Part shown: piece after piece, positions 29,075-57,899 of the stretch
Position numbering within the stretch: position 1 is the stretch's first letter
Layout: each line of letters starts with the position of its first letter
NCBI GenBank assembly: GCA_963713615.1
Contig: CAVQMM010000001.1
Location: forward strand, 1,568,001-1,632,000
DNA: 64,000 nt
Origin: an uncultured Chlamydiae bacterium
Lineage (GTDB): Bacteria > Chlamydiota > Chlamydiia > Chlamydiales > JAJFMA01
Direction of reading: 5' to 3'
Translations under genes and position numbers: made by a program
The notes under the pieces: model-generated
What the model was told of the DNA's origin: nothing
The model's input: the letters and a program-made list of their open reading frames with translations, nothing else
Databases searched by the model: none

Positions 29075-29083
29075 AACTACCTT

Positions 29084-35905: not shown

Positions 35906-36031
35906 AGGATTGATTTTTGGCATACACACCAAGCGTTCTAATCCTGCTGCGATGTCTAAGCGGAGAAATTTGCTGGCCCAAAACTCAAGACCACCAATAA
36001 CTCCAATTTTGGATCTTATACAGGACAATTG

Positions 36032-36964: not shown

Positions 36965-36990
36965 AGATATTAATGGCTAGTGGTCAGACG

Positions 36991-37133
36991 TAGAGTGTTG
37001 ATTTGAGGCTTTTTTGTGCCAATAGTTTCAGGGAAATCTTGTCCATCCTTCCAATACGATTCCTTCTCCATTTTAAAGGGACAAAATTTGACAATGCCCA
37101 TGGGTGATGAAAATGGCTTGAATCAACACCCTA
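36991..37133. mobile_element. 143-bp MITE inserted in a REP-like copy
   Basis: 13-bp IR TAG(A/G)GTGTTGATT; 9-bp TSD GGTCAGACG (36982-36990; 37134-37142). Confidence 0.75.
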
Positions 37134-37164
37134 GGTCAGACGTGACTCCAAGCAAAAACGATAA

Positions 37165-37959
37165 TCAGTAACACCCAAATCCCTGGCATTCACCACTTCT
37201 TTTCGCTTTTATAGCAAACGACTTTTGAGGTGAATTGCATAACGCTCTTGAATTCTGAAATTGAAAACCACCACCTTGAGGATTGACAAATTGAAATATT
37301 CCATTATTAATGATAAATTTGAATCCTTGATAAAACATATCTAATTCGGAAATTAATATTTTTTTGGGTTGCTCATTTACAGAAATCTTCACTAACGTTT
37401 TGACCTGCTCTCCTCTGGTCTTTATGGTAATGATTCCTCCTTCTGTAGTAGCATCCCAGCAGTCTGGATTTCCTCTCCATTCATTTTGTTTGATGCTTAG
37501 TAATTCTTCACCATTCTCATTAAAAAAATGGCCTGACAGTCTAAAAGGGCTATTTTCAAATTCAGGGGGGTCTATTCGCAGGAGGCTAAACTCCTCAATT
37601 AAAATAACATCTTTATAACCAAAAAACTCATTAGAACCTAAGAAGAGCCTTGGACAGTCCTCATTTAGGTATAATTGATTTTTGAACCCTTGTTTTTTGC
37701 AAAAAGGAGACTGATTTGCTATTTCTATTTTCTCTAACGGAAGAAATCCTCTTTCCTTTTCATCATGGTGACTGCCACACAGGAGAGTAATTCCTTCTGC
37801 GGAATGATGTCTGCAATCCATAAATGGCGGATTAAAATGTTCATATTGATAAATTCCTGATCCGCAAATGACACATCCGAACCCGCAGCGTTGGCGAACT
37901 TGTCTAGCGATTTTTTTAGGAATATTACGAGAAAGGTTAAATTCATTTTTATTAGACAT
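37165..37959 (-). CDS. HNH endonuclease-domain protein
   Basis: VRQRCGFGCVICG...YEH...GITLLCGSHH; beta-rich C-terminus. Confidence 0.8.
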   Translation of the reverse strand: MSNKNEFNLSRNIPKKIARQVRQRCGFGCVICGSGIYQYEHFNPPFMDCRHHSAEGITLLCGSHHDEKERGFLPLEKIEIANQSPFCKKQGFKNQLYLNEDCPRLFLGSNEFFGYKDVILIEEFSLLRIDPPEFENSPFRLSGHFFNENGEELLSIKQNEWRGNPDCWDATTEGGIITIKTRGEQVKTLVKISVNEQPKKILISELDMFYQGFKFIINNGIFQFVNPQGGGFQFQNSRALCNSPQKSFAIKAKRSGECQGFGCY

Positions 37960-38077
37960 ATCTTGCGCGAGCTTGTTTTTGAATTATTATTAAAATAATA
38001 GCATTATAGAATTTTAAATTCGCTACTAAAATCGCATAGACATGACTGATCTTCTTACAAGGCATTAGTAATTTCTC

Positions 38078-38584
38078 TTATTTTATCCACTTAAAGCCAA
38101 TAACGGATTCAGGCAGATTTAATGCCTTAGCAATTTTATAAAGTGTCGTACGACGCGGCATAGAACTAGATGTGAAAAATCGACTAAGAGAGGGCTGTGG
38201 AATACCGGTCTTTCGAGCCAGTTCGTTAATTCCACCCTGTCGATCAACTTCTGATCGTAGTCGCTCTTTAAATGCCATGACATCATTTTTAATATCCTTG
38301 AGATCGTTAAAAAGGAGATAGGGCCGCTCCTCTGTTTTTGAGGGAGCATCTACAATATCCTCAAGTGAATCTTGCAAATCAGCAATAATTCTGTCGCGCT
38401 CACCGGAATCCACTTCTTCAAACCACAGTTCCATCAAATCTCGAATTCCTTCGTAGCGCTGACAATATTCCATCAATAAACAAATAAATGCTCCCTCAAT
38501 ACCAATACGGCGCATTTCGTTGAGAATATCTAGAACGTGCAAATCAGCACTTGGATTATCTTCGTGGGTTTGTGCATGGCTCAT
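38078..38584 (-). CDS. XRE-HTH antitoxin-like protein
   Basis: C-terminal HTH INELARKTGIPQPSLSRF...TTLYKIAKAL; ATGA overlap with the upstream gene. Confidence 0.8.
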   Translation of the reverse strand: MSHAQTHEDNPSADLHVLDILNEMRRIGIEGAFICLLMEYCQRYEGIRDLMELWFEEVDSGERDRIIADLQDSLEDIVDAPSKTEERPYLLFNDLKDIKNDVMAFKERLRSEVDRQGGINELARKTGIPQPSLSRFFTSSSMPRRTTLYKIAKALNLPESVIGFKWIK

Positions 38585-38976
38585 GACAACCTACCTCGAA
38601 AAAAGAATCTTCCCTCTTTGATGAGTTGGATTTTTGTTTTAAATTTGAGCATCTCTCGCAGGTCGGTGCTCTTATTGTCTTTAACGTAGGCATTGCATAA
38701 ATATACAGTATCATCGGCAATAGCCACGAGCAACCGTAATTGGATTTGTCCTGGGCCCATATTATGCCATTTCATCTTGTATCCCTGACGAATGATCTTG
38801 CCACTTTTGTCCTTGCAAGGTCCCCAGAACTTATCGTTGCTAAATCTGAGATGCCCAGGATAATCTTTTAAGAGCTCTGCATCTGGACGGAGAACCTCTC
38901 TGTACTCTTCAGGTGAAAATACACCAACCAAGTCCAAAAAGGACTGCAGCGCCCATTCCGTGATTACGATCTCCAT
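38581..38976 (-). CDS. RelE/HigB-like toxin candidate
   Basis: MEIVITEWALQ...LRLL...VYLCNAYVK; toxin-first order with an HTH gene. Confidence 0.6.
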   Translation of the reverse strand: MEIVITEWALQSFLDLVGVFSPEEYREVLRPDAELLKDYPGHLRFSNDKFWGPCKDKSGKIIRQGYKMKWHNMGPGQIQLRLLVAIADDTVYLCNAYVKDNKSTDLREMLKFKTKIQLIKEGRFFFRGRLS

Positions 38977-39134
38977 CGTCCCATTCCCGCATATAACTTA
39001 TGATAACATAAGATAGCATATCATAGCAATACACTCCAGGAGATAATGAAGGCATTGTGAGGTCATGGCACACCTGTGGCACAGTGGCACACGTTTCATG
39101 TCATTTCTGGCCATCACTTCTCGGTTGATTTCAA

Positions 39135-39266
39135 TGCTAGGGGTCAGACGTGACTTATTGCTAGGGGTCAGACGTGACTTATTGACTTCTTGTCTGAAAT
39201 TCTGCTTTCTCACCAAAGTCTCTCGTGTGCTAAACAAGTCAATAAGCCACGTCTGATCCCTAGCAC
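39135..39266. mobile_element. Non-autonomous RAYT-end element (REPIN-like)
   Basis: Tandem 24-bp GCTAGGGGTCAGACGTGACTTATT x2, then the inverted copy AAGTCAATAAGCCACGTCTGATCCCTAGCAC; matches both ends of the 12887-14001 locus. Confidence 0.8.
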
Positions 39267-39515: not shown

Positions 39516-39872
39516 ATGTTAAGTGAGTTTAATATAGCCAGCTTATCGGCTAGAGAAAAGAAACGAGTTCTAGAGATGATTGACAGAGGAGATTCGCTTC
39601 CCGAAAGATATCGTCATCTACTATTTGAACAACCGCACAAAGCGGAATTGGTTTGGTCTGGAAAAACTCAAGAAACAACAAAGTTGTTCTACCATTCCAA
39701 ACAATTGAGCAAATTGATGAACCCCGCCTTGAGCCGTCTAAAGAGACCCCACTTGATTTTTTTCGCTGCAACACATCTACAGGAAGACAGTCGGCTGGTT
39801 GGACCAATAAATTAATTTGGGGAGACAATCGGTTAGTTCTTTCATCTCTAAAGAACGGTCCCTTACGGAAGC
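39516..39872 (+). pseudogene. N-terminal fragment of a type III Mod-like DNA methyltransferase (frameshifted, truncated)
   Basis: LPERYRHLLF..ELVWSGK / VLPFQTIEQIDEPR..GWTNKLIWGDNRLVLSSLKNGPLR. Confidence 0.7.
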
Positions 39873-39875
39873 AAA

Positions 39876-40082
39876 CAGCGTATTAGCAATGCGTTTAGAG
39901 GCGATGATGGGTCTTGCCTACAGACTTTGTGCCGGTACGAATCCACTCTTGAGCGAAACTTTTACAAAGCAATTCATGAACTTCAGCGTCTTCAGGCAAT
40001 GCGTATGGGTATTGCTGTAGCTACCCCTACGGCAATAGATATTAACCTCAACCGCTCTGATGAGATTGGCTTCGTTTCGTAA
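39876..40082 (+). pseudogene. C-terminal fragment of a phage/satellite-type hypothetical protein
   Basis: Startless frame CLQTLCRYESTLERNFYKAIHELQRLQAMR...IDIN. Confidence 0.4.
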
Positions 40083-40147: not shown

Positions 40148-40303
40148 CTAAAACCACCTGCTACCAAATAATTTTCCTATAAGGGCACCAATTTTGCGCT
40201 GTCTTCCCGATTTAGTAAGAGGAATTCCGATTGCGCGCGATATTTGCGCTTTAAATGCTGAAATACCTAGAAGCCGTCTCCAGGAAAACCCACCTCTGTT
40301 CAT
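40148..40303 (-). CDS. 51-aa basic small protein, last gene of the kinase-helicase operon
   Basis: MNRGGFSWRRLLGISAFKAQISRAIGIPLTKSGRQRKIG; AGGTG RBS; 19 bp after the 41708-40323 stop. Confidence 0.7.
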   Translation of the reverse strand: MNRGGFSWRRLLGISAFKAQISRAIGIPLTKSGRQRKIGALIGKLFGSRWF

Positions 40304-40322
40304 AAATTCACCTAATAAATGT

Positions 40323-41708
40323 TTAAGTTTTGCGATTTTGAAGGCTAGGACCATGAGTTCTACTACGCGCGTCTGAAATAACTGAACTATTCTCTACTTG
40401 CTTTAGAGCTTTAGCCCCAACCGGTAAAGCTTTTTCGATATACAAAGCAGTTCCTGATTTTTCGAGTAAAGACTTAAGACGGGAGAATTCAGAGCACCAA
40501 ATCGTTTCTCTATCTGAATCTTTAGAGGCTTTAGAAGCATCGTTTACCTGCTCATATGTAACAAGCTGCACCTGCATTCTTTCCGCATCTTCAACAGCTC
40601 CAAGCTCAACCCCATAGTCATTTTCGTTGGGTTTTCTAACAACAATACGACCATTTTCCGCCCAAGCTGTTGCCATATTTTCTCTGACTTCATAACCAAG
40701 CTCGGATAATCCCTTTAGAATAGCCTCTCTTCTTGAGGCTCCTGCCATAGCCCTTGTCTCTTCTTTGAGTAAGGCGACACCTTTATCTCTTAGAAGCTTG
40801 CTTGAAGATATATCATTGGAATCAATGGCTTTTGTTAGCAGAACTTCAAGGTCTTTGGCCGGTTTGGATGTCAATCTGTGCAATTCGCTGCGAATCTCCC
40901 GCATTGATGCTATTGCAAGCTCTTTGGCCTTTCGTTCATTTGAGTGAGCTACTAAATCAAGAATGAGAGAATCGGTTAAAAGAGAACGACGACTTGAAGA
41001 CGACTCTTGTGCAATCAAAGTTGCGCGAGCAAGGAATGGTTGAACGCTTTCCCCTTCAATAGCTTCAATCTCAGCTAATAGTCTATCTAATCGTCGATCG
41101 GCTTCTATAGCCTTGATATCCCCTTCTTGACGCATTTTCCAGTCAGTGAGAGTTTGTAGCTTCTCTCCTTCCGATAGCTTTTTAGAGAGTTCTTTTTGTA
41201 GAGGGGTCATGCTTTGCTTTTCAACCGCGCTGAGGGTGTATTCAATCAGTATTCGGCTCAGCGTTGAATTCATAGTAGCTAAATCTGCCTCGTTAGCTGT
41301 TATTGCAGAAGAGGCAATATTCGATAATTCTTCCGGAATTTGACGGTGGCTTGCTTCAAAAGTTCTAATAAGTGTTTCTGCAGAATACTGTAATCGTCTA
41401 CGCAGGCTGCGTTCTAGCTCTGCTTTTGCAATCGTTTCAGTTCGAATACGGCTCATATCGGCTTGTAAAGCTGCTATTTCCGTAGCGCATTGTTTCTGTA
41501 TATCAAGAAACTGTTCACGTTCAAACATCTTAACAATGGAAAGAAACTTGCTTTCTACTGTTTTTTCCTCTTCAGAAGTCAACGCGTCATGGTTAGAAGC
41601 ATATCTACGCCATTGATCGATCGCATCTTGAAGGGCATCGATTCGGCCTTTGCAAATGGACATCACTTCTTGTTTTGTAACAACTCGCACAACCTTAGGA
41701 CCGCTCAT
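40323..41708 (-). CDS. Coiled-coil-rich hypothetical protein
   Basis: 461 aa; MSGPKVVRVVT start; C-terminal RREAILKGLSELGYEV...ETIWC; 6 bp after the helicase stop. Confidence 0.85.
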   Translation of the reverse strand: MSGPKVVRVVTKQEVMSICKGRIDALQDAIDQWRRYASNHDALTSEEEKTVESKFLSIVKMFEREQFLDIQKQCATEIAALQADMSRIRTETIAKAELERSLRRRLQYSAETLIRTFEASHRQIPEELSNIASSAITANEADLATMNSTLSRILIEYTLSAVEKQSMTPLQKELSKKLSEGEKLQTLTDWKMRQEGDIKAIEADRRLDRLLAEIEAIEGESVQPFLARATLIAQESSSSRRSLLTDSLILDLVAHSNERKAKELAIASMREIRSELHRLTSKPAKDLEVLLTKAIDSNDISSSKLLRDKGVALLKEETRAMAGASRREAILKGLSELGYEVRENMATAWAENGRIVVRKPNENDYGVELGAVEDAERMQVQLVTYEQVNDASKASKDSDRETIWCSEFSRLKSLLEKSGTALYIEKALPVGAKALKQVENSSVISDARSRTHGPSLQNRKT

Positions 41709-41714
41709 ACTCTC

Positions 41715-44700
41715 TTATCCTCCCGAACCAAATTGAATGGGCTTGTCTGCGAACCTAATTCCTAAGGCTTCTTCGAGCACCTGCTTTAAACGTCCCATTT
41801 CTTCTTTTCTTCGATGATACCATGCATAACTAGTCACTCTATAGACATGCGGGATCTCCATGCGCAGGACTTTGGGACGCCAAACTTCACGGGCTCTTGC
41901 TGTTTCTAAAATAGGGTGGCAGTGGGCATCACATTCGATGCCAATTCCAAATCGCTTTTTCTCTGGATCTTCTATTACAAAATCCAATCCAAAAGCATCG
42001 CTTTCTTTGATTGCAGATGTTTTTAGTCCAAGACTTTTGATGAAGGTAGCGACTGATCGAGTAAAACCATCTTTGTCAAAATTTGAGTTTCCCTGGGAGA
42101 CTGGATTTTCAGAAGTGATATTGTCGAGAGACTTTCTGGCTGCTCCCAAAAATCCTTCACTGAGTTTAGAGGCATAGTCGAAGTAAGCTTGAAGGTAATC
42201 TCTAGAGTTTTTAGGGCTCTGGCTCTTGGATAAAGCATCTGAGATCTCGTTGATGGGAAGGGAAGTGATCAGAATGATTTTTTCCCTCGCTCGCGTAATA
42301 GCTACATTCAAACGACGCTCTCCTCCGCCTTGGCTAAGAAGACCAAATTGTCTTCGGAATATCCCTTGCTCATCTCTTCCGAAAGTCGAGCTAAAAATGA
42401 TTACATCCCTTTCGTCTCCTTGAACGTTTTCAATGTTTTTCACAAAGAAGCTCATATCTTCCCTGTCTTGCTGACGTTCTCGTTCTTGGCTTAGAACTTG
42501 CCGGAAGGGGGCATCCTGATCGGCTCGTTCGGCTAGAACATCTTCTATCAGGTCGGCTTGCTTAGCGTTGAAGGTCACGATGCCAATGCTGGGTTTATCT
42601 GGTAAAGACCAATATTCAGCTAGTAGGTCGACGACCCTCTCGGCCTCTTCCCTATTGGTTTGGTTTGCGTAGACTCCGTCGACTCGTATTAGCTCAATAG
42701 GCCGAATATTTTGAATCACATTTTCTGGGTGTCTGACAGGAACGCTTAATCTATTGCCATAGAAAGCTGCGTTTGAAAAAGCAATCAGCTCGCGGTATTT
42801 TGAGCGATAGTGGATTTGTAGCATGGATCTTGGTAAAACGGTTTTCCCAAGAGTTAGCAAATCTGTACAATCTTTAATTTCTCTTTTGTTCCAAGTGTCT
42901 TCAAGTGCTTCCCTTTCCGCATCACTGATTATTATGTCTAGGTCTTCATCAATGGAAGTTGGCTCCTCGTCATCTTCGATTCGTTTCATGAACACGCTTG
43001 TAGGGGGCATTTGTTTCTCATCTCCGCTAATGACAGTTCGTTTAGCCCGATAGAGAGTTGGAAGAGCATTTTCTATAGGGATTTGACTTGCCTCGTCGAA
43101 AATAATCACATCAAACATTCCAGCCCTTAAAGGAAGCAGTTGGCTTGCGGTATCTGGATTCATTAGCCAGACTGGTCGGAGATGTCCTAGCCCCATATCC
43201 CATCCGCGCTCAATGACTTGCCGAAGACGACGAGCTCTTGGACCTCTTAGACGAGTGATATCTTCCCAATCTTCAGGACCCCTGATCTTCTCTATATCTA
43301 TATTGTAAGCCAAGAACTTCTGGTTCAATTTTCTCATGTGAGTAGTTGATTCGTCGAGAGTTTGGATTTTCCGTGAGAGCTCTTTTTGAGAAAGACGCAA
43401 GATTGGGAAGTTCTGCTCGATTCGGTCTTTCCAGGCAAGTCGGGCTTCACGAGCAATAATTCTTCGAATCACTTCTTCAAGTTCTTCTGCAGGATATTCC
43501 CTCAATTCTTTATCTTTTTCCCGGAGAACGGCCAAAATCTTTAAGACCTCCAGAGAAAGATTTGGTGCTTCCAGGCGGAATTCTTGATAGGCAGAGAGGG
43601 ATGGGAGTGCTTCAACTAAGAGGTGGAGATCATGAAAACTAGACTGATTATTATGAATATTTGCTTGGCAAAGTTCAAACAACTTTTCAGAGAAAAATGG
43701 AACTAGCCGGTCTAAAGCCTTGATGCTCTGTAGTCTAGATTGATGGCGCGCAAAGGCTTTTTCATACCGAGAGATAAGATCTTGGTACGCGCGTACACCC
43801 ATTTGGGTTATCGGCTCGACTTCTTCTTGGCGAGGGCAGGCATGAAGGGCATGGATACCTTCTTGTGCTAAGCGTAGCTCCTCTATCATACGATCGGCCT
43901 TCAAACGCAACTCCTTCAAAAATAAGGGAGTGGACGTATGCCTGTCGGCGTAAAGCAGATTAGAAAATTCTAAAAGCTTCTCTCGGATCGGTCTTTGTTG
44001 CAGTTCGAGTTTAGCAGCATCCTGAAGTTGTAAAATATGCTGCATCCTTGTGCAATTCATCTCGCGTAAGGGATGAAGACAAAGCTCTTGGTGGGTTAGG
44101 CGCAAAGACAGTAATTGCTGGATTCGCTTACAATTTATATTGTACGAAGAATTAATACGATATTTTTGGTAAGCCGAGAAGGATGGTAGCGCTTGATATA
44201 ATTGTTGAAGCTCGTCAAAATTCAATCTATTATTTCGAATATTAGCGTAACATCGCTCAAATAGTGCTTCGGAGAAAAATGCAGAAAGGCTCTTTAAAAT
44301 ATCGATACTCTGACTTCTAGCTTGCTGGCGCTCAAAGGCTTTTTGGTATCGAAAGATCAGATCGTGATATGCGAGTTTACCTGTTTTGGCTATTGGCTCG
44401 ATTTCTTCTTGGCGAGGGCAGGCATGAAGGGCTTGCACACCTCTTTGTGCTAGGTGCAGATCCTCTATCATACGATCAGCCATCAAGCGCAACTCCTTCA
44501 AAAATAAGGGAGTGGACGTATGCCTGTCGGCGTAAAGCAGATTAGAAAATTCTAAAAGCTTCTCTCGGATCGGTCTTTGTTGCAGTTCGAGTTTAGCAGC
44601 ATCCTGAAGTTGTAAAATATGCTGCATCCTTGTGCAATTCATCTCGCGTAAGGGATGAAGACAAAGCTCTTGGTGGGTTAGGCGCAAAGACAGTAATTGC

Positions 44701-47700
44701 TGGATTCGCTTGCAATTTATATTGTACGAAGAATTAATACGATATTTTTGGTAAGCCGAGAAGGATGGTAGCGCTTGATATAATTGTTGAAGCTCGTCAA
44801 AATTCAATCTATTATTTCGAATATTAGCGTAACATCGCTCAAATAGTGCTTCGGAGAAAAATGCAGAAAGGCTCTTTAAAATATCGATACTCTGACTTCT
44901 AGCTTGCTGGCGCTCAAAGGCTTTTTGGTATCGAAAGATCAGATCGTGATATGCGAGTTTACCTGTTTTGGCTATTGGCTCGATTTCTTCTTGGCGAGGG
45001 CAGGCATGAAGGGCTTGCACACCTCTTTGTGCTAGGTGCAGATCCTCTATCATACGATCAGCCATCAAGCGCAACTCTTTTAAAAATAAAAATGTCGACA
45101 TTTGTTTTTCATGATAAAGCTGGCTGTAAAGTTCTAAAATTGTCTCACGGATTGGTCGTTGCTCCAACTCCAGTTTGACTGCATTTTGAAGTTGTACAAT
45201 CCTTTCCTGAGTTGGTTTTTCGTTACAATTTCTCAAGAGGCTTTGAATCCGTCTGTAGTTTACATACCGTAAAGGATTGAGGCGACCAATTAAGGAAACT
45301 GATGAAGTAGCACTCTTAGCCCATGAGAGCCATTTTTCTACGGTCAAAATAGGCAATTGAATCAATTGGGCAGATAGCTGAGAGTCATGATCTTTTAAAT
45401 CTAAATCGCTTAATGACGCTTTGAGTAATTCAAGCTGCCGAATTAGATCACGACCTTTTGGCTCTCCATCTGCAGGAAATAGGTGAAACCAAGATGAAAT
45501 ATTTTTCCAGTCTACTTTACTAAAGAGAGGCTCATGTGATGTGATCCACTCTTGATGAGGAGATGGGTCATCTATTTCGAAAGATGTGGTCGAAGGCGTG
45601 ATAGACTCTTCTCGTCTTTTTTCTTTATCAATGAATGCAAAAAGAAGGCTGGCGAATTCATTGACTAAAGGAGAGTCAGGGGAGAAGACTTTGAGTTTTT
45701 CTAATGGATTTCTTTCAAAAAAAGAGGATTCAAGCCAGATTCCAACCATCGAAGATCGGATTTTTTCAATTGCCTTGATTTGTTTTTGATGGCCTAAGTA
45801 GGCAACCGATACGATGCCTGTCTTAGCCCATGAGAGCCATTTTTCTACGGTCAAAATAGGCAATTGAATCAATTGGGCAGATAGCTGAGAGTCATGATCT
45901 TTTAAATCTAAATCGCTTAATGACGCTTTGAGTAATTCAAGCTGCTGAATTAGATCACGACCTTTTGGCTCTCCATCTGCAGGAAATAGGTGAAACCAAG
46001 ATGAAATATTTTTCCAGTCTACTTTACTAAAGAGAGGCTCATGTGATGTGATCCACTCTTGATGAGGAGATGGGTCATCTATTTCGAAAGATGTGGTCGA
46101 AGGCGTGATAGACTCTTCTCGTCTTTTTTCTTTATCAATGAATGCAAAAAGAAGGCTGGCGAATTCATTGACTAAAGGAGAGTCAGGGGAGAAGACTTTG
46201 AGTTTTTCTAATGGATTTCTTTCAAAAAAAGAGGATTCAAGCCAGATTCCAACCATCGAAGATCGGATTTTTTCAATTGCCTTGATTTGTTTTTGATGGC
46301 CTAAGTAGGCAACCGATACGATGCCTGTCTTAGCCCATGAGAGCCATTTTTCTACGGTCAAAATAGGCAATTGAATCAATTGGGCAGATAGCTGAGAGTC
46401 ATGATCTTTTAAATCTAAACCGCTTAATGACGCTTTGAGTAATTCAAGCTGCTGAATTAGATCACGACCTTTTGGCTCTCCATCTGCAGGAAATAGGTGA
46501 AACCAAGATGAAATATTTTTCCAGTCTACTTTATTAAAGAGAGACTCATATGATTTGATCCATTTTTGATGAGGAGATGGATCTTCTACATCGAAAGATG
46601 CCATTGACTGTCGGATGGATTCATCTCGCCATTTTTCTTTATCAATGAATGCAAAAAGAGAACTGACAAATTCATTGACTAATGCAGAATCAGGAGAGAA
46701 CAGTTTGAGCTTTTCTAATGGATTTCCTTCAAAAGAGGACTGCAACCAAGTTCTGGCGATCGGAGCACAGGTTTCTTCAATTACTGTAAGCCGTTTTTGA
46801 TCGAGGTCTTTTAATACTCTTCGTAGAACAGGCACATCAATCAATTTGATTTCTTGATCTTCTAGATCGATTAATTGACCTAAGAGGATTCGATAGCTTA
46901 GTCCCGTTGTTTGGTCAGTTGTGTGAATCGCTGCATGGTGCTTATCGATTTCCCTTTCTAAGTTTTCGATTTTTTCAGCCAGCTCTTCGCGTTTAAGTCC
47001 TACATTTTCCGCACTGTAGGCGCTGATAGCTTGTACAATCCCTTCGATTTGAGATCTCAGATTTTCTAGGACAGAGGCACGATCTTTATTTACGTGCGTT
47101 ATATAGAAATAACGATTCTTAAGCCCTTCTGCATCGAGTCTTTTTGCCAGGACTTCTAGAGCTGCAGACTTTTGGCAGACAACGAGTACTGTCTGATTGC
47201 GACCGATGCAGTCCGCAATGATATTTACAATCGTTTGGCTTTTCCCCGTTCCTGGAGGCCCTTCAATGAGCAGGCCTGGAGTTTGTCGTGCGCGAAAAAC
47301 GGCTTTCTCTTGAGAAGGGTCACTCTCCATTGTGAAGAAACGATCTTTTTCAGGAATCGAAGGAAGGGCGGGGGAAGCGAAAGGCTCTCTGTTCACGCGG
47401 AGTGCCATTTCTAGTCCCGTTCCATTTACGGACTTTTTCCTCATTTGGCGCAAATCTTCTCCTATGGCCTGACCCATAAATTCAGCATGGAAGAGAACGG
47501 CAGAGCAAACCACTTGCCTACTTCCTGCCTTAACTGTGTAGTCATTATCTGGCAGAGCACATAGAGACCTTTCTCTTGGATCTGCTAGGGATCCGAAAGC
47601 ATCGATCACGTCTCCGATATGAATCGTAGACCTTCCTAATAGCTCTTTAGCAGTTTCTGCACATCGTTTCGCTTCTTCAGTACCAATCAGTCCCATAAGA

Positions 47701-50123
47701 GCTGGATTCACTCTCACTTCTTCTCGATCACGATCAAAAAGAATGCAGACGCGATCTCTATTCTCAATGTTAATTTTGATAGGCCAAAGCAAAATGGGCG
47801 CAATTCTTGGTTTTTTTTCTGTTGCCTCCGCTCGGCTGTCTTTCATGACAAGGAATGGAAATCCAACATAGAGGCTATCGATACCTGTATCCTTCCTATA
47901 TGTTTTTGCATGGCTTACTAGATGGCGCAGCCTTCGATCGAGATCAGAATCATCTTCAAAAGCTATCCTATCGATTCCTATTGGAGTCTCTATCCTACTC
48001 ATTAAGTGTTCGAGAATGGATGAGGCTTTTGTTTTTTTCCCTGCAATACGTGCAAGGTCAACACGCGAATTAGATTTTCCGATCAGCATTCTAACAAGTG
48101 GGCCTCGTTGTGCTAGACTTGCAGTACGCTTTTCGAAAAACTCCAGTATCGTAGAAACATACTGCTGTCGAGGCAGCTCCTGCCAGGATTCTTTGGAAAC
48201 GGAGAGGAGAGCCAATGCTCGGGGAAGTGAAATCCTTCTCTCATTTCTGAAGGCATCGGCCCACTCATCCACACGTGCAATTCCACATCGTGAATAGTTT
48301 GCAGTTCGCTCTTCGATTTCTCGGTAAAGATCCCTTCTTGAAATGTCAAACCATTGTTGTGCAGCTGACCCATCGTATGAAGGAAGGCCAGCCTGTGAAG
48401 CAACGGCATTTGCCTGATTTAAGATTTGTTCGGCGGGTTGATACTGCTGAAGACTGGCTCCGAGGAGGATTATCAATTCTTCATCGGTAATTTTTTGTCT
48501 ATCCACCAACGAATTTATACCACTGTGGTCAGATCCTGGATACAGCCGACGATGAATGGCCCATAGGCGTTCCAAATTTGGTCGGGAGGAAGTAAGTGCT
48601 AATAGTCTAAAACTTTCTTCATTGAGTTCGATTTCGAAAATTTTAGCTCTTGCACGTGCTCTTTCGATTCGATCATGCAAATCGCAGAGGTGAAGCTCGC
48701 GGTTCATTTGACGGAGCTGACCAATGAGGGGACCTGTGATGATGTCGTACCCTTGAATCGGATTTTGCAGCAGCCACGAACATGTAAGGATTTCCCCTTG
48801 ATTGATTAATGGAAGGCTAGGATTCATCCACATCAGAGCTAAAGCGTGCCTAAAATCTTCAGAAACGGAATCTATAGAGGTCGCAAGTCGAATACCGGCT
48901 ATAATCTTAGGGTCTGCTTTGCGATCTTCTAACCAAGTGACTACTACCCCTCTCATTAAAAGATCTTTAGCTTGCTCCCAATTTGCCGCCTCGGCAGCGG
49001 CTAGGGAGTACGCTTTGGGACAAACATAAGAGTGCTCTTTGAATTCTAAAGCTGGGCCATTGTGAGCTTCTTCAGAATTACCATCTGAAGGCGCCTCTAT
49101 AGACTCTCCAGAAAGCCAACTTTGTACTTGTGTCCATTGCCAACGTTGATCGGGATCCCGCGCCAATAATCCACGAAGTAATAAGTTAAGAGCAGGATCA
49201 ATGCCTTTTGGGAGGGAAACTCCTCTTGTTAGTACGTGAATACGAAAGGCTTTTTCATTGATCCCATCAAAACACTGGCCATTTGTAATTAGGTGAAGAA
49301 TAATCATTCCTAAGCTCCACCAATCAGAAGCTACGCTGATTCCTCCTGCAATCACTTCTGGGGCTGTATAATGGGCTGAAATAGGTTGTATGACGGTATC
49401 AAGATCAAAGGTGGAGAGGCGGCTAAATTGAAATCCAGTAAGTAGCAAGCTCAATGGGTCTCGATGACTAATTAAAATATTTTCTGGTCGAAGATTCCCA
49501 TGACGCAATCCATATTCTGTAAGAGTGCGTAAGATTCTCCCTATAGATTTAACGATTTGCCGAGTCATTTCCAGATCGGTGCACGTAGATGTCAGATCCA
49601 ATAAATTTGACTGACCAATAAAACCTGTAACCTCATATCGACGCCCCTGCCATTCACCGTGAGCTAGAAGCTCTGGTACATAGTCTTTTGGCAACCGCTT
49701 GAGGACTTCATAGATTGTTGAATCTGGGTGAGCATCAGGAAGGTATAAAGTAAGAACGGCTTGATGTCCATATCGCTCAACAATAAAAGTTTCGAAAGCT
49801 TCGCTACGACTCTCAAGTTGATCAATAGCTGCCCATCCATCAATGACCGTTTCATTTAATTGAGGATTTTCTTCTACGCATTCTCCTGCTACTGCTTCCG
49901 CTGCTCCGCATTCAAAACACATCTCGTCTCCCTCATTGAGAGGGTGACCGTTATGACAGCGTCGTATGGTAGGAGGGGTGATGGGTGTTTCAGGAATGAA
50001 ATCAATCTGGCCAGGAGGTCTTAGAGGTTCTAGGGTTAAGTCCCATCCACAATTTCCGCAGAGGACTTCTTCTTGAGGACGTTCTTGGCTACATCCCAGA
50101 CACTTACGAACACGGATTGTCAT
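41715..50123 (-). CDS. Zn-ribbon / Ser-Thr kinase / DUF4011-like / SF1 (UPF1-like) helicase / Vsr-like nuclease fusion, about 2800 aa
   Basis: CxxC ribbons; RHGNLRPENILI, YTAPE, SDWWSLG; DTGIDSLYVGFP, APILLWP; EGPPGTGKSQT, FDEASQ, SGDEKQMPP, HYRS, NVQGDERD, RRLNVAITRAR; IGIECD. AGGAGG RBS favours start 50123 (track: 50150). Confidence 0.9.
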   Translation of the reverse strand: MTIRVRKCLGCSQERPQEEVLCGNCGWDLTLEPLRPPGQIDFIPETPITPPTIRRCHNGHPLNEGDEMCFECGAAEAVAGECVEENPQLNETVIDGWAAIDQLESRSEAFETFIVERYGHQAVLTLYLPDAHPDSTIYEVLKRLPKDYVPELLAHGEWQGRRYEVTGFIGQSNLLDLTSTCTDLEMTRQIVKSIGRILRTLTEYGLRHGNLRPENILISHRDPLSLLLTGFQFSRLSTFDLDTVIQPISAHYTAPEVIAGGISVASDWWSLGMIILHLITNGQCFDGINEKAFRIHVLTRGVSLPKGIDPALNLLLRGLLARDPDQRWQWTQVQSWLSGESIEAPSDGNSEEAHNGPALEFKEHSYVCPKAYSLAAAEAANWEQAKDLLMRGVVVTWLEDRKADPKIIAGIRLATSIDSVSEDFRHALALMWMNPSLPLINQGEILTCSWLLQNPIQGYDIITGPLIGQLRQMNRELHLCDLHDRIERARARAKIFEIELNEESFRLLALTSSRPNLERLWAIHRRLYPGSDHSGINSLVDRQKITDEELIILLGASLQQYQPAEQILNQANAVASQAGLPSYDGSAAQQWFDISRRDLYREIEERTANYSRCGIARVDEWADAFRNERRISLPRALALLSVSKESWQELPRQQYVSTILEFFEKRTASLAQRGPLVRMLIGKSNSRVDLARIAGKKTKASSILEHLMSRIETPIGIDRIAFEDDSDLDRRLRHLVSHAKTYRKDTGIDSLYVGFPFLVMKDSRAEATEKKPRIAPILLWPIKINIENRDRVCILFDRDREEVRVNPALMGLIGTEEAKRCAETAKELLGRSTIHIGDVIDAFGSLADPRERSLCALPDNDYTVKAGSRQVVCSAVLFHAEFMGQAIGEDLRQMRKKSVNGTGLEMALRVNREPFASPALPSIPEKDRFFTMESDPSQEKAVFRARQTPGLLIEGPPGTGKSQTIVNIIADCIGRNQTVLVVCQKSAALEVLAKRLDAEGLKNRYFYITHVNKDRASVLENLRSQIEGIVQAISAYSAENVGLKREELAEKIENLEREIDKHHAAIHTTDQTTGLSYRILLGQLIDLEDQEIKLIDVPVLRRVLKDLDQKRLTVIEETCAPIARTWLQSSFEGNPLEKLKLFSPDSALVNEFVSSLFAFIDKEKWRDESIRQSMASFDVEDPSPHQKWIKSYESLFNKVDWKNISSWFHLFPADGEPKGRDLIQQLELLKASLSGLDLKDHDSQLSAQLIQLPILTVEKWLSWAKTGIVSVAYLGHQKQIKAIEKIRSSMVGIWLESSFFERNPLEKLKVFSPDSPLVNEFASLLFAFIDKEKRREESITPSTTSFEIDDPSPHQEWITSHEPLFSKVDWKNISSWFHLFPADGEPKGRDLIQQLELLKASLSDLDLKDHDSQLSAQLIQLPILTVEKWLSWAKTGIVSVAYLGHQKQIKAIEKIRSSMVGIWLESSFFERNPLEKLKVFSPDSPLVNEFASLLFAFIDKEKRREESITPSTTSFEIDDPSPHQEWITSHEPLFSKVDWKNISSWFHLFPADGEPKGRDLIRQLELLKASLSDLDLKDHDSQLSAQLIQLPILTVEKWLSWAKSATSSVSLIGRLNPLRYVNYRRIQSLLRNCNEKPTQERIVQLQNAVKLELEQRPIRETILELYSQLYHEKQMSTFLFLKELRLMADRMIEDLHLAQRGVQALHACPRQEEIEPIAKTGKLAYHDLIFRYQKAFERQQARSQSIDILKSLSAFFSEALFERCYANIRNNRLNFDELQQLYQALPSFSAYQKYRINSSYNINCKRIQQLLSLRLTHQELCLHPLREMNCTRMQHILQLQDAAKLELQQRPIREKLLEFSNLLYADRHTSTPLFLKELRLMADRMIEDLHLAQRGVQALHACPRQEEIEPIAKTGKLAYHDLIFRYQKAFERQQARSQSIDILKSLSAFFSEALFERCYANIRNNRLNFDELQQLYQALPSFSAYQKYRINSSYNINCKRIQQLLSLRLTHQELCLHPLREMNCTRMQHILQLQDAAKLELQQRPIREKLLEFSNLLYADRHTSTPLFLKELRLKADRMIEELRLAQEGIHALHACPRQEEVEPITQMGVRAYQDLISRYEKAFARHQSRLQSIKALDRLVPFFSEKLFELCQANIHNNQSSFHDLHLLVEALPSLSAYQEFRLEAPNLSLEVLKILAVLREKDKELREYPAEELEEVIRRIIAREARLAWKDRIEQNFPILRLSQKELSRKIQTLDESTTHMRKLNQKFLAYNIDIEKIRGPEDWEDITRLRGPRARRLRQVIERGWDMGLGHLRPVWLMNPDTASQLLPLRAGMFDVIIFDEASQIPIENALPTLYRAKRTVISGDEKQMPPTSVFMKRIEDDEEPTSIDEDLDIIISDAEREALEDTWNKREIKDCTDLLTLGKTVLPRSMLQIHYRSKYRELIAFSNAAFYGNRLSVPVRHPENVIQNIRPIELIRVDGVYANQTNREEAERVVDLLAEYWSLPDKPSIGIVTFNAKQADLIEDVLAERADQDAPFRQVLSQERERQQDREDMSFFVKNIENVQGDERDVIIFSSTFGRDEQGIFRRQFGLLSQGGGERRLNVAITRAREKIILITSLPINEISDALSKSQSPKNSRDYLQAYFDYASKLSEGFLGAARKSLDNITSENPVSQGNSNFDKDGFTRSVATFIKSLGLKTSAIKESDAFGLDFVIEDPEKKRFGIGIECDAHCHPILETARAREVWRPKVLRMEIPHVYRVTSYAWYHRRKEEMGRLKQVLEEALGIRFADKPIQFGSGG
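43530..45090. repeat. Intragenic tandem repeat B, 582-bp period, three units
   Basis: 43906-44495 equals 44488-45077 with 1 mismatch seen; the third unit is more diverged. Confidence 0.9.
45314..46745. repeat. Intragenic tandem repeat A, 507-bp period, three units
   Basis: TCTTAGCCCATGAGAGC recurs at 45314, 45821, 46328; near-identical except the N-terminal unit. Confidence 0.9.
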
Positions 50124-50775
50124 AAGGCCCCTCCTTTTTTGAGCGCTCATCTTGTGTAGTTATGGCAACGTGACCTTCCTTAGCTAAGATCGTTTTTAGG
50201 CGTCGCATGTCATCACGCCTAGGAATCCCAGCGAGCCATATAGCTCCTTCTTCTTCAAACATAATATCAAAGGTCTTGTCCGATGGCTTAAGAGTGCGTT
50301 CAAATTGACGGAATCGCGTTTCTCCGAGAGGGGTAAGGCAATGAAGACGTTGATTATCACTGCCACGCAGGGCAAGTGTTTGGGAATCACTTTCTTCGTA
50401 AGGGTCTGAAATAAGAGCGTCTATTGTTCCTTTGCACTGATTAACTAAAGGAGCAATCTTCTCAAAAGGATGTCCACTATAAACCAGAATATCCTTAGTG
50501 ATTTTAGAGCGAATCTGAGCAAGGAGATTAATCAACGCTTCAGATTGATCAAAAGGTTCCCCACCAGAAATAGTAATTCCATCCGCCTCGTCCAGCCAAG
50601 GATCGATAACGGCCATGATTTCATTAATTGAAACACCACCCCTTCCAGTTCCCCACGTATCGGCTGATACACATCCCTTGCAACGAATAGAACATCCTTG
50701 AAACCAGATGCCAATACGGCGACCTGGTCCCAGGGTCGTTACTGGGAAGTGGATTCTAGAAAGGTAAAGGATCAT
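50104..50775 (-). CDS. Radical SAM / 4Fe-4S protein, NrdG-activase-like
   Basis: LGPGRRIGIWFQGCSIRCKGC (CxxxCxxC), ITISGGEPFDQ, VYSG, LRGSDNQR. Confidence 0.9.
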   Translation of the reverse strand: MILYLSRIHFPVTTLGPGRRIGIWFQGCSIRCKGCVSADTWGTGRGGVSINEIMAVIDPWLDEADGITISGGEPFDQSEALINLLAQIRSKITKDILVYSGHPFEKIAPLVNQCKGTIDALISDPYEESDSQTLALRGSDNQRLHCLTPLGETRFRQFERTLKPSDKTFDIMFEEEGAIWLAGIPRRDDMRRLKTILAKEGHVAITTQDERSKKEGPYDNPCS

Positions 50776-52637
50776 AATATCGCACTGGGAAAATCGCTGA
50801 TAAGATTTAGCTTGGTTACTATACCGATGTCAACAGTACTAATGCAAAGCTGTCTGCCAGATTCGATATTGTCATCAAAGAGAGCTCTAGAAAGAGGATT
50901 GACTAGATGAGTTTCGATTTTATTGCGGATCCCTCGTCCGCCATTAGATAGGTCTTTTAAGCAAAGTTCTCTAAGGGTTTGCAAGGCGGAAGAGGTTGCA
51001 ATAACCTCGATCCCTCGAGATCCTTTTAAATCTGCGAGCACGTTATTTATCATGCTCTTGAAAATTTGTTCGGCTATATCATCACGAATGAAGTCAAATA
51101 CGATAACATTGTCTCCTATTCGGTTGAGAATCTCAGGCCGGTTGAGGGTGAGCTTGAAGTGCTTCTCAATCTCTTCTCGAATACACTTTTGAATAGTTTC
51201 AAAGGAATCTGTCGGTGCAACCGTTGCTTTTCTATCCCCAGTGATATCTGTTTGATAGATACCAAGATTGGAAGTAAAAACAATAAAAGCTTCTGTAAAA
51301 TAGACCCTCTCCCCCCTGCCGGATGTCAAAACCCCATCATCGAGAATTTGAAGAAACTTATCGAGAATCCTGGGATGGGCTTTTTCAATTTCATCAAATA
51401 AAACGACACTAAAGGGTTTTTCTCGAATCGCGTTTGTCAGCTCTCCTCCTATGTCGTAACCGATGTAGCCTGGAGGGGCTCCAATTAAGCGTTGATCCGA
51501 ATGTTCAGCACTAAATTCGGACATATCAAAACGAATATAGGCGCTTTCATCACCAAATAGTAGGCTTGTAATGGATTTGGCTAGTTCTGTCTTTCCCACG
51601 CCTGTAGGTCCCGCTAAAAAGGCTACTCCTCTCGGACGCCCGCCTCGACGTGGAGCCCCTACTCCTGTAACCGCCCGCTTGATGATATCAAGCATATGGA
51701 CAACCGCATGGTCTTGTCCCTTGACTCGTTGCATAATAAAATTTTCGCCATCATGGATCTTGCTTCGATCGATTTTTTGCCAAGGATCCTCAGAAACACC
51801 TACCTTGTAACGGCGAACAGCTTCGCTTATCTTGGCGTATCCTAGCTTTTCCTCTCGACAGAGTTGAGCTATTAGCATGAGATCAACTAAAAGCAACCCT
51901 TCAGTATTATCCACAAAGTCTTGAAGCGCGACATCTTTTAGCTGGGCGGATGCGTCCTTTGCTCCCTCAAGGGACTGAATAAGAGAATTCGCCAGAATTC
52001 GACGCATCTGATGGTCTGGATTTGGAATAGAAATATGACGAACCTTTGAATTGTCAACCGTAAGCCAAGCAGGCATATCCCCTTCTTTTTCAGCTACCCA
52101 TAAGATCGTATTAAAGAATGGTTTTGATGGAGACCCATGAGCACGAACTCTAGCTTCGTGCGATCGAATCAAAGCTCTTGTAAAAAGACGATGTTCATTG
52201 TCACTAAGATTATTTTGGTTAATGATTAAGCGCGATGCAAAGTCGATGATTAGAGCGATTGGTTCCGCTTTCCACGTAATCACTTTTTCTAAAACTTCTT
52301 CGAAAAGATCTAGACCCGCAGGCGCACAACCATTTGCGGGTTGAAGCCCTAGTTGCTTCATCAAGGTTTCTGCATCTTTGTAACCTTGTTGACCATTTAA
52401 TGAACCAATACTTTTGAAGCCATTGACGAAGTCATAGCATAATACATGAGTGTAGCCGCACGTTCGCAATTCTTCGTTTAAGAAAGAACTGAGTGGTCGA
52501 ACAACAGCACCGCTTGCTTTGTCTTCGATCTGAAGGTCTCGTACATTGCCTGAAAGCACAAATTGACTTTTCAAAGGCAAAAAACGTATGAGATCGCGCA
52601 ACCACTTTGATTTTTTCACTTCTAAGTCTTTGATCAT
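50772..52637 (-). CDS. ClpB-like AAA+ ATPase (single intact NBD2-type module)
   Basis: VKGQDHAV, AGPTGVGKTE, FDMSEF, LIGAPPGYIGY, VLFDEIEKAHP, RPEILNRI, GGRGI. Confidence 0.9.
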   Translation of the reverse strand: MIKDLEVKKSKWLRDLIRFLPLKSQFVLSGNVRDLQIEDKASGAVVRPLSSFLNEELRTCGYTHVLCYDFVNGFKSIGSLNGQQGYKDAETLMKQLGLQPANGCAPAGLDLFEEVLEKVITWKAEPIALIIDFASRLIINQNNLSDNEHRLFTRALIRSHEARVRAHGSPSKPFFNTILWVAEKEGDMPAWLTVDNSKVRHISIPNPDHQMRRILANSLIQSLEGAKDASAQLKDVALQDFVDNTEGLLLVDLMLIAQLCREEKLGYAKISEAVRRYKVGVSEDPWQKIDRSKIHDGENFIMQRVKGQDHAVVHMLDIIKRAVTGVGAPRRGGRPRGVAFLAGPTGVGKTELAKSITSLLFGDESAYIRFDMSEFSAEHSDQRLIGAPPGYIGYDIGGELTNAIREKPFSVVLFDEIEKAHPRILDKFLQILDDGVLTSGRGERVYFTEAFIVFTSNLGIYQTDITGDRKATVAPTDSFETIQKCIREEIEKHFKLTLNRPEILNRIGDNVIVFDFIRDDIAEQIFKSMINNVLADLKGSRGIEVIATSSALQTLRELCLKDLSNGGRGIRNKIETHLVNPLSRALFDDNIESGRQLCISTVDIGIVTKLNLISDFPSAIL

Positions 52638-52800: not shown

Positions 52801-54294
52801 GGGTGCAATCCAAACTTGTACGCAGAGCAATTCTTGTGTAAGATTGTTTACACAATGTTGCGGCTGACCCAGCATGAAACCCTATCCAAATCAATAATAT
52901 GCGAATTTAGATGAAGACTATTCCACCATCACACGACCTTTCTGAGGATGAACGTTATATTTTACATGTGCTTAGAGAAAATCCAAGTCTGTTACAGCCG
53001 CTCCTGGAGATGGTTGATGTCGTTGGTAAGAATTTTGAAGCGCTTAAGACGGGCGATGAAGCAGAAGAAGCTACCATAGCTGCTATTCGTAAGTCTGGGC
53101 AGGCCATTCTTCAAAATTGGGCGGATCATCGTGTTAAGCAGGTAGAATCTCAATACGAGCCTGAGAAGGGCATCCGTCCCCACGGAAAAAAAAAGTCGAA
53201 TGGCAGACAACACTAGGACGCATCACTGTTGTTCAAAGGTGTTTTCTACAAAAGAAGCATCGTGGTCGACCTTCACATCGTTTAAGGCCTTTTGAGGACT
53301 TTTCAGGGATAAAACACCAAGATTGGTCAAAGCGGTGTCAACGCTTGATAACTGATCTAGGATCCGAGGAATCCTTTTCGAGGGCCGCGAAACAGATGAA
53401 GGAGCACCATGGATTGGAAATCAGTCCCACTACGATATCAAATATCACGCTTAAACATGCCAAGAGGGCGCAGCTGATGATGAAAAAGCCTCCTATCGGG
53501 AAAAAGGCAGACAATCCAACAACCCCACTTGTGGTTGAAATGGATGGTGGAATGGTGCCCCTAGTTGAAACAGCTGGTTCTGGAGATAGACGGAAAAACA
53601 GAAGAGTATCCTGGGCAGAGCTTAGAGTGGGGGTTATTCAGCGCTTAGGGGAAGCAGACTGGAAATACACGTGTTCCTTTAATAGCCCTGATGATTTGGG
53701 AAATAGAATGCTAACATTATTAGAACGGCAATTTGGGTGGGAAGGACAGAGCCAATTACATGGTATAGGGGATGGAGCAAAATGGATAACTGAACAGATG
53801 GAAAGGGTAGCAGGAAGCCGAGGGAACTACCTAATTGATCTGTATCATTTAAGTGAGTATCTAGCGGGAGCAGCAACGGCCTGGACTGAGGATATTAAAA
53901 AGGAGACTCGAGCGCTAAAGACCCGCTTAAAAAAAGGACAGATCGTGAATGTGAAGCGAAAGCTTCGAAAGTACTCCAAAGTTCACCCTGAGCATGAGGG
54001 CCTGCAAAAGTGTATACAATACATAACTAATAGACCTGGGCAGTTTAAGTATGATGAAGCGATTAGAAAAGGTTTGCCAATAGGTTCGGGGAAAATAGAA
54101 AGCACGCATCGCCATGTGATTCAGAAGCGGTTGAAAAAGCCCGGAGCATGGTGGAGACGGGATCATGCGGATCAAATGGCAAACCTTAGAACTCTTCGAG
54201 CTAACGATGAATGGGAAAGGCTTTGGCAAGATGAGGTAGTCTGTGAGCTCGATTGCCTAGCCGCCTAAGGTGAGTACAAATTTGAATTACACCC
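52801..54294 (+). mobile_element. ISKra4-like (UPF0236) IS element
   Basis: 21-bp imperfect IR GGGTG(C/T)AAT(C/T)CAAA(C/T)TTGTAC; no TSD. Confidence 0.85.
52911..54268 (+). CDS. ISKra4-like transposase, likely expressed by -1 frameshift at A9G (53186-53195)
   Basis: ORFA ends GKKKSNGRQH; the -1 frame continues KKVEWQTTLG... into VEMDGGM, GDGAKWI, DLYH, IGSGKIESTHRHVIQKRLK. Confidence 0.8.
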
Positions 54295-55893
54295 GACATT
54301 ATCCCCTATTCGGTTGAGAATTTCAGGTCGGTTGAGCGTTAGCTTGAAGTGCCTTTCAATCTCTTCTCGAATACGCTTTTGAATACTTTCAAAGGAGTCT
54401 ATCGGTGCAACCGTTGCTTTTCTCTCCCCAGTGATATCTGTTTGATAGATACCAAGATTGGAGGTAAAGACGATAAAAGCTTCTGTAAAATAAACCCTCT
54501 CCCCCCTGCCGGATGTCAACACCCCATCATCGAGAATTTGAAGAAACTTATCGAGAATCCTGGGATGGGCCTTTTCAATTTCATCAAATAGAACGACACT
54601 AAAGGGTTTTTCTCGAATCGCGTTTGTCAACTCTCCTCCCATGTCGTAACCGATGTAGCCTGGAGGGGCTCCAATCAAGCGTTGATCCGAATGTTCAGCA
54701 CTAAATTCGGACATATCAAAACGAATATAGGCGCTTTCATCTCCAAATAGGAGGCTGGTAATGGATTTGGCTAGTTCTGTCTTTCCCACGCCTGTTGGCC
54801 CCGCTAAAAAGGCTACTCCTCTAGGACGTCCGCCTCGACGCGGAGCCCCTACTCCTGTAACTGCTCGCTTAATGATATCAAGCATATGGGCAACCGCATG
54901 GTCTTGTCCCTTGACTCGTTCCATAATAAAGTTCTCGCCATCATGGATCCTGCGTCGATCGATTTTTTGCCAAGGATCCTCAGAAACACCTACCTTGTAA
55001 CGACGAACCGCTTCGCCTATCTTGGCGTATCCTAGCTTCTCCTCTCGACACAGTTGAGCGATTAGCATGAGATCAACTAAAAGCAGACCTTCAGTATTAT
55101 CTACAAAGCTTTGAAGCGCGACATCTTTTAGCTGGGCCGATGCTTCCTTTGCCCCCTCAAGGGACTGAATAAGAGAACTCGCAAGAATTCGACGCATCTG
55201 ATGGTCTGGATTTGGAATAGAAATATGACGGACCTTTGAATTGTCAGCCGTTAGCCAAGCAGGCATATCCCCTTCTTTTTCGACTACCCATAAAGCAGGC
55301 ATATCCCCTTCTTTTTCGACTACCCATAAGATCGTATTAAAGAATGGTTTTGATGGAGATCCATATGCACGAACCCGAACTTCGTGCGATCGAATCAAAG
55401 CTCTTGTAAAAAGACGATGTTCGTTATCATTGAGTACATTTTGATGAACGATCAACCGAGATGCAAAGTCGATGATTAGAGCGATTGGCTCTCCTTTCCA
55501 ATTAATCACCTTTTCTAAAACTTCTTCGAAAAGATCTAGACCTGCCGGCGCACAACCATTTGCTGGTTGAAGCCCTAACTGCTTCATTATATTCTCTGCA
55601 GCTTCATAACCTTGTTGGCCATTTACTGGATCAATAACTTTAAATCCATTAACGAAGTCATAGCATAAGACTTGAGAGTAGCCATACGTTCGTAATTCTC
55701 CGTTTAGACAAGAAGTAAGTGGTCGAACAACGGCACCACTTGCCTTGTCTTCGATCTGAAGGTCTCGTACATTGCCTGAAAAAACAAATTGGCTTTTCAG
55801 GGGTAAAAAACGAATGAGATCCCGCAACCACTTTGATTTTTTGACTTCCGAAGCTATTACCAAATTACCATCGAAATTAATACTCAAGATCAT
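54295..55893 (-). pseudogene. Second ClpB-like AAA+ ATPase paralog, 3'-truncated by the IS
   Basis: High identity to 50772-52637 up to RIGDNV; 36-bp tandem duplication at 55257-55328. Confidence 0.9.
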
Positions 55894-57807: not shown

Positions 57808-57899
57808 TTGGGGTCGGGCCTAGGGTGTTGATTTGAGTTTTTTTCGACTCAAAAAATTTTAACTGACAGTCATTGCATTCCTTTAAGGGGTACGTGGGA

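Follow-up and report, generated by a model that had tools for sequence, protein, structure and literature searches.

A mobile chlamydial cassette with an ATPase, radical-SAM activase and coiled-coil core predicted to control a Prometheus-like helicase-nuclease

The closest described relatives of the effector studied here are large proteins that combine a DUF4011 domain, a superfamily 1 (SF1) helicase with a large insert and an MTES_1575/Vsr nuclease, namely Prometheus ProA, Hhe and PDC-S37, the last a PADLOC candidate with a single-protein profile. In Pseudomonas aeruginosa, ProA has been validated as a system of one protein, each of whose four domains is essential (PMC13700489, available text). 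We analysed an operon encoding a protein of this kind in the genome of an uncultured Chlamydiae bacterium, within a 64,000-nucleotide stretch that we call the window (Table 1). There the effector, a giant protein, is accompanied by an AAA+ ATPase, a radical S-adenosylmethionine (SAM) activase and a coiled-coil scaffold protein (CC), and these three companions form the core of a system that is real, widespread and apparently undescribed. We propose that the four genes are a mobile cassette whose core is predicted to control the Prometheus-like helicase-nuclease in defence. A defensive function in some form, against phages or other invading DNA, is quite probable, and the full mechanism set out below is an even call.

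The sequence-only reading of this DNA had found no characterised system in the operon, a judgement that stood when Pfam, PADLOC and NCBIfam were run: no model was reached at its curated cut-off (ProA, Hhe, ClpB, NrdG). The best models for the giant were ProA (504 bits against a cut-off of 1500, NF058533), PDC-S37 (E 6e-149, best stretch 398-1341 of 1550) and Hhe (300 bits against 2000, NF042953). It differs from all three in its additional zinc ribbons, pseudokinase and middle domain and in its three partner genes, which are always present. It also departs from Prometheus in belonging to a four-gene operon instead of standing as a single gene, and in having no Pfam match to DUF3320, the protein stopping 20 aa past MTES_1575. 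Mokosh type I systems join a helicase to a PLD nuclease, but the giant matches MkoA/MkoC by its helicase part only and has no PLD domain. The ATPase shares with ClpB/ClpA a D2-type ring domain with a pore loop; however, it has no Clp N-domain, M-domain or active D1 (255 bits against a cut-off of 1232 for TIGR03346, the match covering 263-603 only), and it matches Dodola DolB over part of D2 only, with no DolA among 20 neighbouring proteins. The ternary nucleoside triphosphate-dependent conflict systems (MoxR-vWA) are alike in having a fixed ATPase-containing core with swappable effectors, and one of their subtypes includes a radical-SAM gene whose product is presumed to modify a peptide, but the present cassette has another ATPase class and no vWA; DUF4011, NrdG and Ycf46 are absent from the available text on these systems (PMC7159879). 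No description of the operon was found in the open-access literature searched, which did not cover subscription journals or bioRxiv supplements, whose large candidate lists may hold it. The search terms were absent from the available text of PMC13069673, and the supplements of PMC13069673 and PMC7159879 gave no match. The newness lies in the three-gene core, as the effector by itself resembles known helicase-nuclease proteins.

We searched species-representative genomes with an ATPase-specific motif and obtained at least 120 stretches, 80 of them with flanks; in 12 of these 80 loci the motif picked no open reading frame (ORF). The counts below refer to the 54 loci of at least 15 kb among the matches listed, 26 shorter ones being left out. 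Activase genes were present in 47 of the 54, CC genes in 47, both in 46 and neither in six, while kinases were found in 40, helicases in 18 and the giant in 11. The activase and CC therefore occurred together in 46 of the 48 long loci having either. Since the ATPase, activase and CC occur with other partners in most loci, the core consists of these three genes, and the giant, previously counted as a member of the unit, drops out of its definition. The proposed five-gene unit held for the four large genes, whose linkage is conserved across phyla, but not for the basic micro-gene, which is no conserved fifth cistron. Hosts of the core include Pseudomonadota, Bacillota, Actinomycetota, Bacteroidota, Verrucomicrobiota, cyanobacteria, Acidobacteriota and one archaeon, and the same four-gene order recurs in Rhizobium, Caballeronia, Bradyrhizobium, Pseudomonas, Burkholderia, Verrucomicrobia, Bacteroidota and chlamydiae. 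Other architectures are a helicase with PIN, CC, ATPase and activase, types with kinase, FHA and phosphatase genes, and the core with other genes. The giant-bearing rows (14) form one clade with a support of 99 in a quick tree of 52 ATPases. Long ORFs in GC-rich loci that resembled activase fusions were not counted as such, being without the ATPase motif.

The cassette is mobile and its distribution is patchy. It was found on plasmids, and the loci of close relatives adjoin integrases, IS66 or AbiE. Within the host's order, CC was detected in 3 of 250 genomes, one of these copies being broken, and a further match was borderline. Among homologues that carry names, the closest bear the labels Chlamydiales/Chlamydiae and Legionella. 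A single distant DNA query matched none of 5,426 E. coli genomes over its full length, and annotated phages gave no match; the ATPase motif occurs on three viral contigs. Partial or rearranged sets were also seen. The window's own genome carries a broken, short CC-gene fragment elsewhere (G000:C1:607493-607612), and at L141:7264-12310 a CC gene stands unaccompanied by the rest of the cassette, with a RepB primase and DUF3987 upstream of it and an integrase nearby. A cyanobacterial plasmid (L014:2616-13980) carries an activase, several small GTPase-like and unknown genes, CC, HigBA and the ATPase, with a similar set in L040 and L073. In clostridial and actinobacterial loci (L021, L022, L024, L076, L053 and L069) an ATPase without detected activase or CC adjoins an unknown gene of 220-390 aa, possibly a further system.

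The C-terminal part of the ATPase matches AAA_2/ClpB_D2-small in Pfam and is a ClpB-D2-type domain with Walker A and B motifs and a GYVG/GYIG pore loop. This is the only Walker A motif in the protein; the N-terminal half is family-specific, has no Pfam match and weakly resembles the N-terminal domain of Ycf46 (HHalign 11%, E 0.003). A second ATPase gene, truncated by an ISKra4-family element, lies directly upstream of the operon, and no full-length ATPase was found among 40 relatives. The activase has Fer4_12/NrdG domains (Pfam), an intact CxxxCxxC motif, and GxGxR and GGE motifs. Its closest solved structure is PflA (E 9e-17), and it scores 83.6 bits on the NrdG model against a cut-off of 126.1. 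In the literature searched, as far as its available text goes, glycyl-radical activases serve anaerobic enzymes of one fold. The earlier remark that no glycyl-radical enzyme lies near the operon extends to the whole host genome, which is 99.1% complete and holds no glycyl-radical enzyme or NrdD (zero matches to PF01228 and PF13597, with positive controls that worked). The activase is an orphan, without its usual target enzyme. It further differs from PflA/NrdG in being common in aerobes and in its substrate anchors: PflA holds its glycine peptide via Asp16 and Asn38 (PMC9326890, available text), and both are changed here.

The activase travels with an unnamed family, CC, which offers a candidate substrate and two candidate residues. 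CC has an N-terminal MSGP motif, a long helical body and a C-terminal alpha/beta domain with Cys405. The profile of this C-terminal domain matched 3,056 clusters at 50% identity, 1,805 of them at E 1e-10, fragments counted. Among 56 aligned CCs, which are mostly 10-30% identical and have no Pfam family in common, only Met1, Ser2 and Cys405 are invariant (56/56), and glycine is found at position 3 or 4 in 50. Because the choice of CC starts had favoured Ser-Gly, two checks of the starts were made. Ser-Gly stood at the first in-frame start in 36 of 45 CC ORFs compared with 11 of 819 control ORFs, and it followed the start residue in 93 of 112 full-length database representatives, for which gene calls are independent. 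The cysteine was present in all 150 database CCs, a set chosen by profile. The CC model contains an N-terminal strand (residues 5-10) as well as the C-terminal domain, and one structural match covering residues 3 to 424 suggests that the N-terminus may join that domain. The full model (predicted local distance difference test, pLDDT, 81) had generic helical-bundle matches only and no Foldseek match at E 0.001, and an Atlas structure search with CC returned only unnamed look-alike clusters. For the C-terminal domain (pLDDT 91) the best match was KA1 of Chk1 (Z 6.4, root mean square deviation 3.0, 80 aligned), which is within the range of a common arrangement, and no viral structural match was found at E 0.001. 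On these models, the fold searches neither name nor exclude a fold for the domain.

The giant consists of zinc ribbons, a pseudokinase, an unnamed middle domain, DUF4011, an SF1 (Upf1/DNA2-like) helicase with a helical insert and an MTES_1575 (Vsr-like) nuclease; Pfam recognises the zinc ribbon, Pkinase, DUF4011, AAA_11/12 and MTES_1575. Helicase Walker A and QGDERD are retained in all 14 giants listed, and the nuclease pattern matches 11 of the 14, the remaining ones being similar by eye. The degenerate kinase described before was borne out, with both HGN and TGF present. The window copy has Leu at the place of the beta-3 Lys, Asn for the HRD Asp and Gly for the DFG Asp. Of 13 giants, one retains the beta-3 Lys and three the DFG Asp, whereas all 35 free kinases keep the Lys and both Asp residues. 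A docking pseudokinase is the best reading of this pattern of residues. In the giant, a kinase-middle-domain protein, which is free in other clades, has been fused to a ProA-like effector.

In the mechanism that we propose, the activase would bind the N-terminal Ser-Gly of CC and abstract a hydrogen, much as PflA acts at the Ser-Gly of pyruvate formate-lyase. The radical would then move to, or be trapped by, Cys405 and leave a covalent mark, for instance a cross-link or a chain break; a mark is proposed rather than a lasting radical because many of the hosts are aerobes. A glycyl-to-thiyl relay is the rule among known glycyl-radical enzymes (PMC13450708, available text). The marked CC would dock onto the giant via the pseudokinase and middle domain and keep it inactive, and on infection the ATPase, a motor of the unfoldase type, would remodel the complex and the helicase-nuclease would degrade nucleic acid. 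The defensive role is likely, as suggested by the effector family, the patchiness, the plasmids, the island context, and the integrases and AbiE beside close relatives.

CC also has a possible link to a second group of genes. Ycf46 AAA+, DUF1257 (Ycf35) and DUF2997 form a named cyanobacterial gene cluster (PMC4284462, available text) with no known function in the available text of the literature searched. The CC C-terminal domain matched a DUF2997 profile with HHalign 78%, cysteine on cysteine, and a DUF1257 profile with 40%, whereas controls (unrelated profiles, reversed and 20 shuffled) gave at most 2%. The DUF2997 profile was built from 32 locus fragments, two of them in the wrong frame, and the DUF1257 profile from 17 proteins. 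Among 2,946 local ORFs, 63 of which were CC, the top 20 matches contained 5 and 10 CCs, which as kin are not independent. Of 15 relatives' fragments, two matched Pfam DUF2997 (E 0.012 and 0.23) short of the cut-off, and the window CC gave no match. In 20 extended DUF2997 loci, ORFs were scanned and a Ycf46-type ATPase was present in 14 and the same activase family in three, two of them near-identical. At L211:7350-11774 and L212:3254-7678 an operon comprises a Ycf46-type ATPase, a DUF1257-like gene, a GYF_2/HhH gene, DUF2997 and a member of this activase family in which Asp occupies the PflA anchor. The resemblance of the CC C-terminal domain to DUF2997/DUF1257 would tie the system to the Ycf46-Ycf35 module, as would the inactive N-terminal half of the ATPase and the activase family in some loci; the link is moderate and not proven. 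The cassette differs from that module in its active ATPase domain, which is of ClpB-D2 type and not classical AAA (PF00004-type), in two small domains apparently fused into the long helical CC, and in its nuclease or kinase partners.

Several observations weigh against the proposed mechanism. The PflA anchor places hold Leu/Ser in 37 of 58 activases, the window copy included, so the substrate may not be a glycine peptide, and oxygen destroys glycyl radicals (PMC13450708, available text). The N-terminal Gly of CC is absent in 6 of 56 aligned proteins and in both of two viral-contig CCs, some of these beside a Leu-type activase, and three aligned CCs have neither this nor an internal Gly. The CCs of the helicase and PIN clade (six proteins) have no N-terminal Gly and keep a Gly three residues before the cysteine, and their activases keep an acidic residue at the Asp16 place (Glu/Asn at both anchors); this swap is confined to one clade and so counts as one evolutionary event. 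Six of the 54 loci have the ATPase with neither of its two core partners detected. The cassette might serve defence while its activase acts on a target other than CC, be it a phage protein, a nucleotide or small molecule, or the ATPase or giant itself, the Ser-Gly and cysteine of CC being structural or metal-binding. The changed anchors and the variable Gly would fit this, as would the Ser at position 2 that DUF1257-like proteins also have, an activase having been seen at few of their loci. However, the activase belongs to a protein-activating class and is found with CC in nearly all long loci having either, and the terminal motif of CC outlasts the rest of its sequence, and we regard such another target as quite unlikely.

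Other points bear on the defensive role. Away from chlamydiae, across 13 distant giant-type loci with 117 ORFs, there was one clear defence neighbour (Wadjet JetA) and one possible one (a nuclease-helicase), although flanks were short and there was no background control, and one giant-type locus adjoins dnaK/groEL. The scarcity of such neighbours would fit a core of the Ycf46/Ycf35/DUF2997 type that serves generally in protein remodelling or stress signalling and answers to damage or redox state, with the giant as a repair or surveillance client. The profile matches of CC and the shared activase and ATPase families described above agree with this, and most core loci, lacking a helicase, encode an intact Ser/Thr kinase that is often accompanied by phosphatase or FHA genes. 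A module of this kind is nevertheless rather unlikely, since the very patchy spread, the siting on plasmids and islands and the frequent decay fit conflict genes and the giant is nearest to tested anti-phage proteins. It is compatible with any of these readings that the system is real elsewhere and that the window copy is decaying or partly mis-assembled, and thereby impaired, which we consider rather improbable. All frames are open, as had been claimed, but the giant is not intact in a simple sense: it exceeds the 2,074 aa of a close homologue (L143) by 728 aa, and two in-frame tandem triplications, of 169-aa and 194-aa units, add 726 of these residues. The repeats contain identical runs of 473 and 365 nt, and public contigs are too short for any to span either array; a recent duplication is therefore likely and mis-assembly possible. 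The HGN motif, where 12 of 13 giants keep the HRD Asp, and the IS-cut duplicate ATPase also speak for decay. On the other hand, the helicase, nuclease, Walker and CxxxCxxC motifs are intact, the repeat copies are 87-93% alike overall and differ at their edges, and the insert of a homologue is itself built from diverged repeats.

If the cassette is defensive, as we propose, radical protein modification would be an added control step in bacterial immunity, in a core that swaps effectors. More broadly, CC could belong to a protein-radical switch of a new class, as the substrate on whose N-terminal Ser-Gly and invariant cysteine the activase acts, in a fold unrelated to glycyl-radical barrels. In this switch an AAA+ motor would read the mark and free interchangeable effectors, and the switch would recur split into DUF1257 and DUF2997. 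We offer this tentatively, as a somewhat unlikely possibility. The DUF1257/DUF2997 link gives a handle on the unexplained Ycf46/Ycf35 genes, and a switch split in this way would, if true, account for the orphan Ycf46/Ycf35 genes found in cyanobacteria and algal plastids.

Table 1. Features of the operon and its upstream flank, in window coordinates
Feature	Position	Strand	Remarks
AAA+ ATPase gene	50772..52637	-	621 aa; core gene 1
PflA/NrdG-like radical-SAM activase gene	50104..50775	-	223 aa; core gene 2
Giant effector gene	41715..50123	-	2,802 aa; variable partner to core
Coiled-coil scaffold (CC) gene	40323..41708	-	461 aa; core gene 3
Basic micro-gene	40148..40303	-	51 aa; conserved chlamydial ORF, outside core
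507-nt (169-aa) unit, tandem triplication in helicase insert	45314..46801	-	
582-nt (194-aa) unit, tandem triplication in helicase insert	43580..45200	-	
CC N-terminal Met-Ser-Gly-Pro codons	41697..41708	-	proposed radical target
CC invariant Cys405 codon	40494..40496	-	
Truncated ATPase paralogue, IS-cut	54265..55893	-	89% nt identity over 1,553 nt
ISKra4-family element between both ATPase copies	52801..54294	+	more copies elsewhere in genome

The five co-oriented ORFs are all open on the minus strand, and the tight junctions ascribed to them are real. The ATPase and radical-SAM genes overlap by 4 nt. For the giant, the most likely start is the ATG at 50123, which is preceded by a ribosome-binding site and gives an overlap of 20 nt with the radical-SAM gene. 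Gaps of 6 nt and 19 nt separate the giant from CC and CC from the micro-gene. The GC content of the operon is 43%, compared with 47% for the genome. Promoter and terminator scans gave signals no better than chance, or below.

The micro-gene had been read as the fifth component of the operon. Of 251 genomes in the host's order, 10 carry its ORF, in three cases with CC adjoining, and a Criblamydia plasmid has the ORF but not the operon. Among 11 metagenome loci whose CC is at least 60% identical, the micro-gene follows CC in nine, eight times on the opposite strand, and a micro-gene query had no match in the other 19 loci nor in L009-L135. The protein has no family match in Pfam, PADLOC or NCBIfam. 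We therefore rejected the five-gene operon on the distribution and strand of the micro-gene, which is usually on the opposite strand or alone and is limited to chlamydiae; by its sequence matches it is a real ORF and a clade-limited chlamydial neighbour, outside the core.

The defence-island setting was confirmed in the window, where Mrr, DarT with a macro-domain gene, an HTH antitoxin-like gene and many transposases occur. The DarT ADP-ribosyltransferase gene and the macro-domain gene after it form a DarTG-like pair (28022-29752). The region from 36029 to 38976 holds the gene for Mrr, a type IV restriction enzyme, and a 264-aa ORF in which an HNH-like Cys/His pattern can be seen by eye but which Pfam does not match, together with a 131-aa and 168-aa pair resembling a toxin and an HTH antitoxin. 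Overlapping short ORFs at 39516-39886 resemble the N-terminal part of a type III restriction-modification methylase and look like a frameshifted remnant of such a gene. A 449-aa gene of no known family (55916-57265), which lies upstream of the truncated ATPase, was considered as a CC relative and rejected as unrelated; its homologues adjoin CC or the micro-gene in L140 and L176. Short direct and inverted repeats containing GGGGTCAGAC flank island genes at 36973-37141, 39133-39265 and 57803-57845 and may be a dispersed repeat element.

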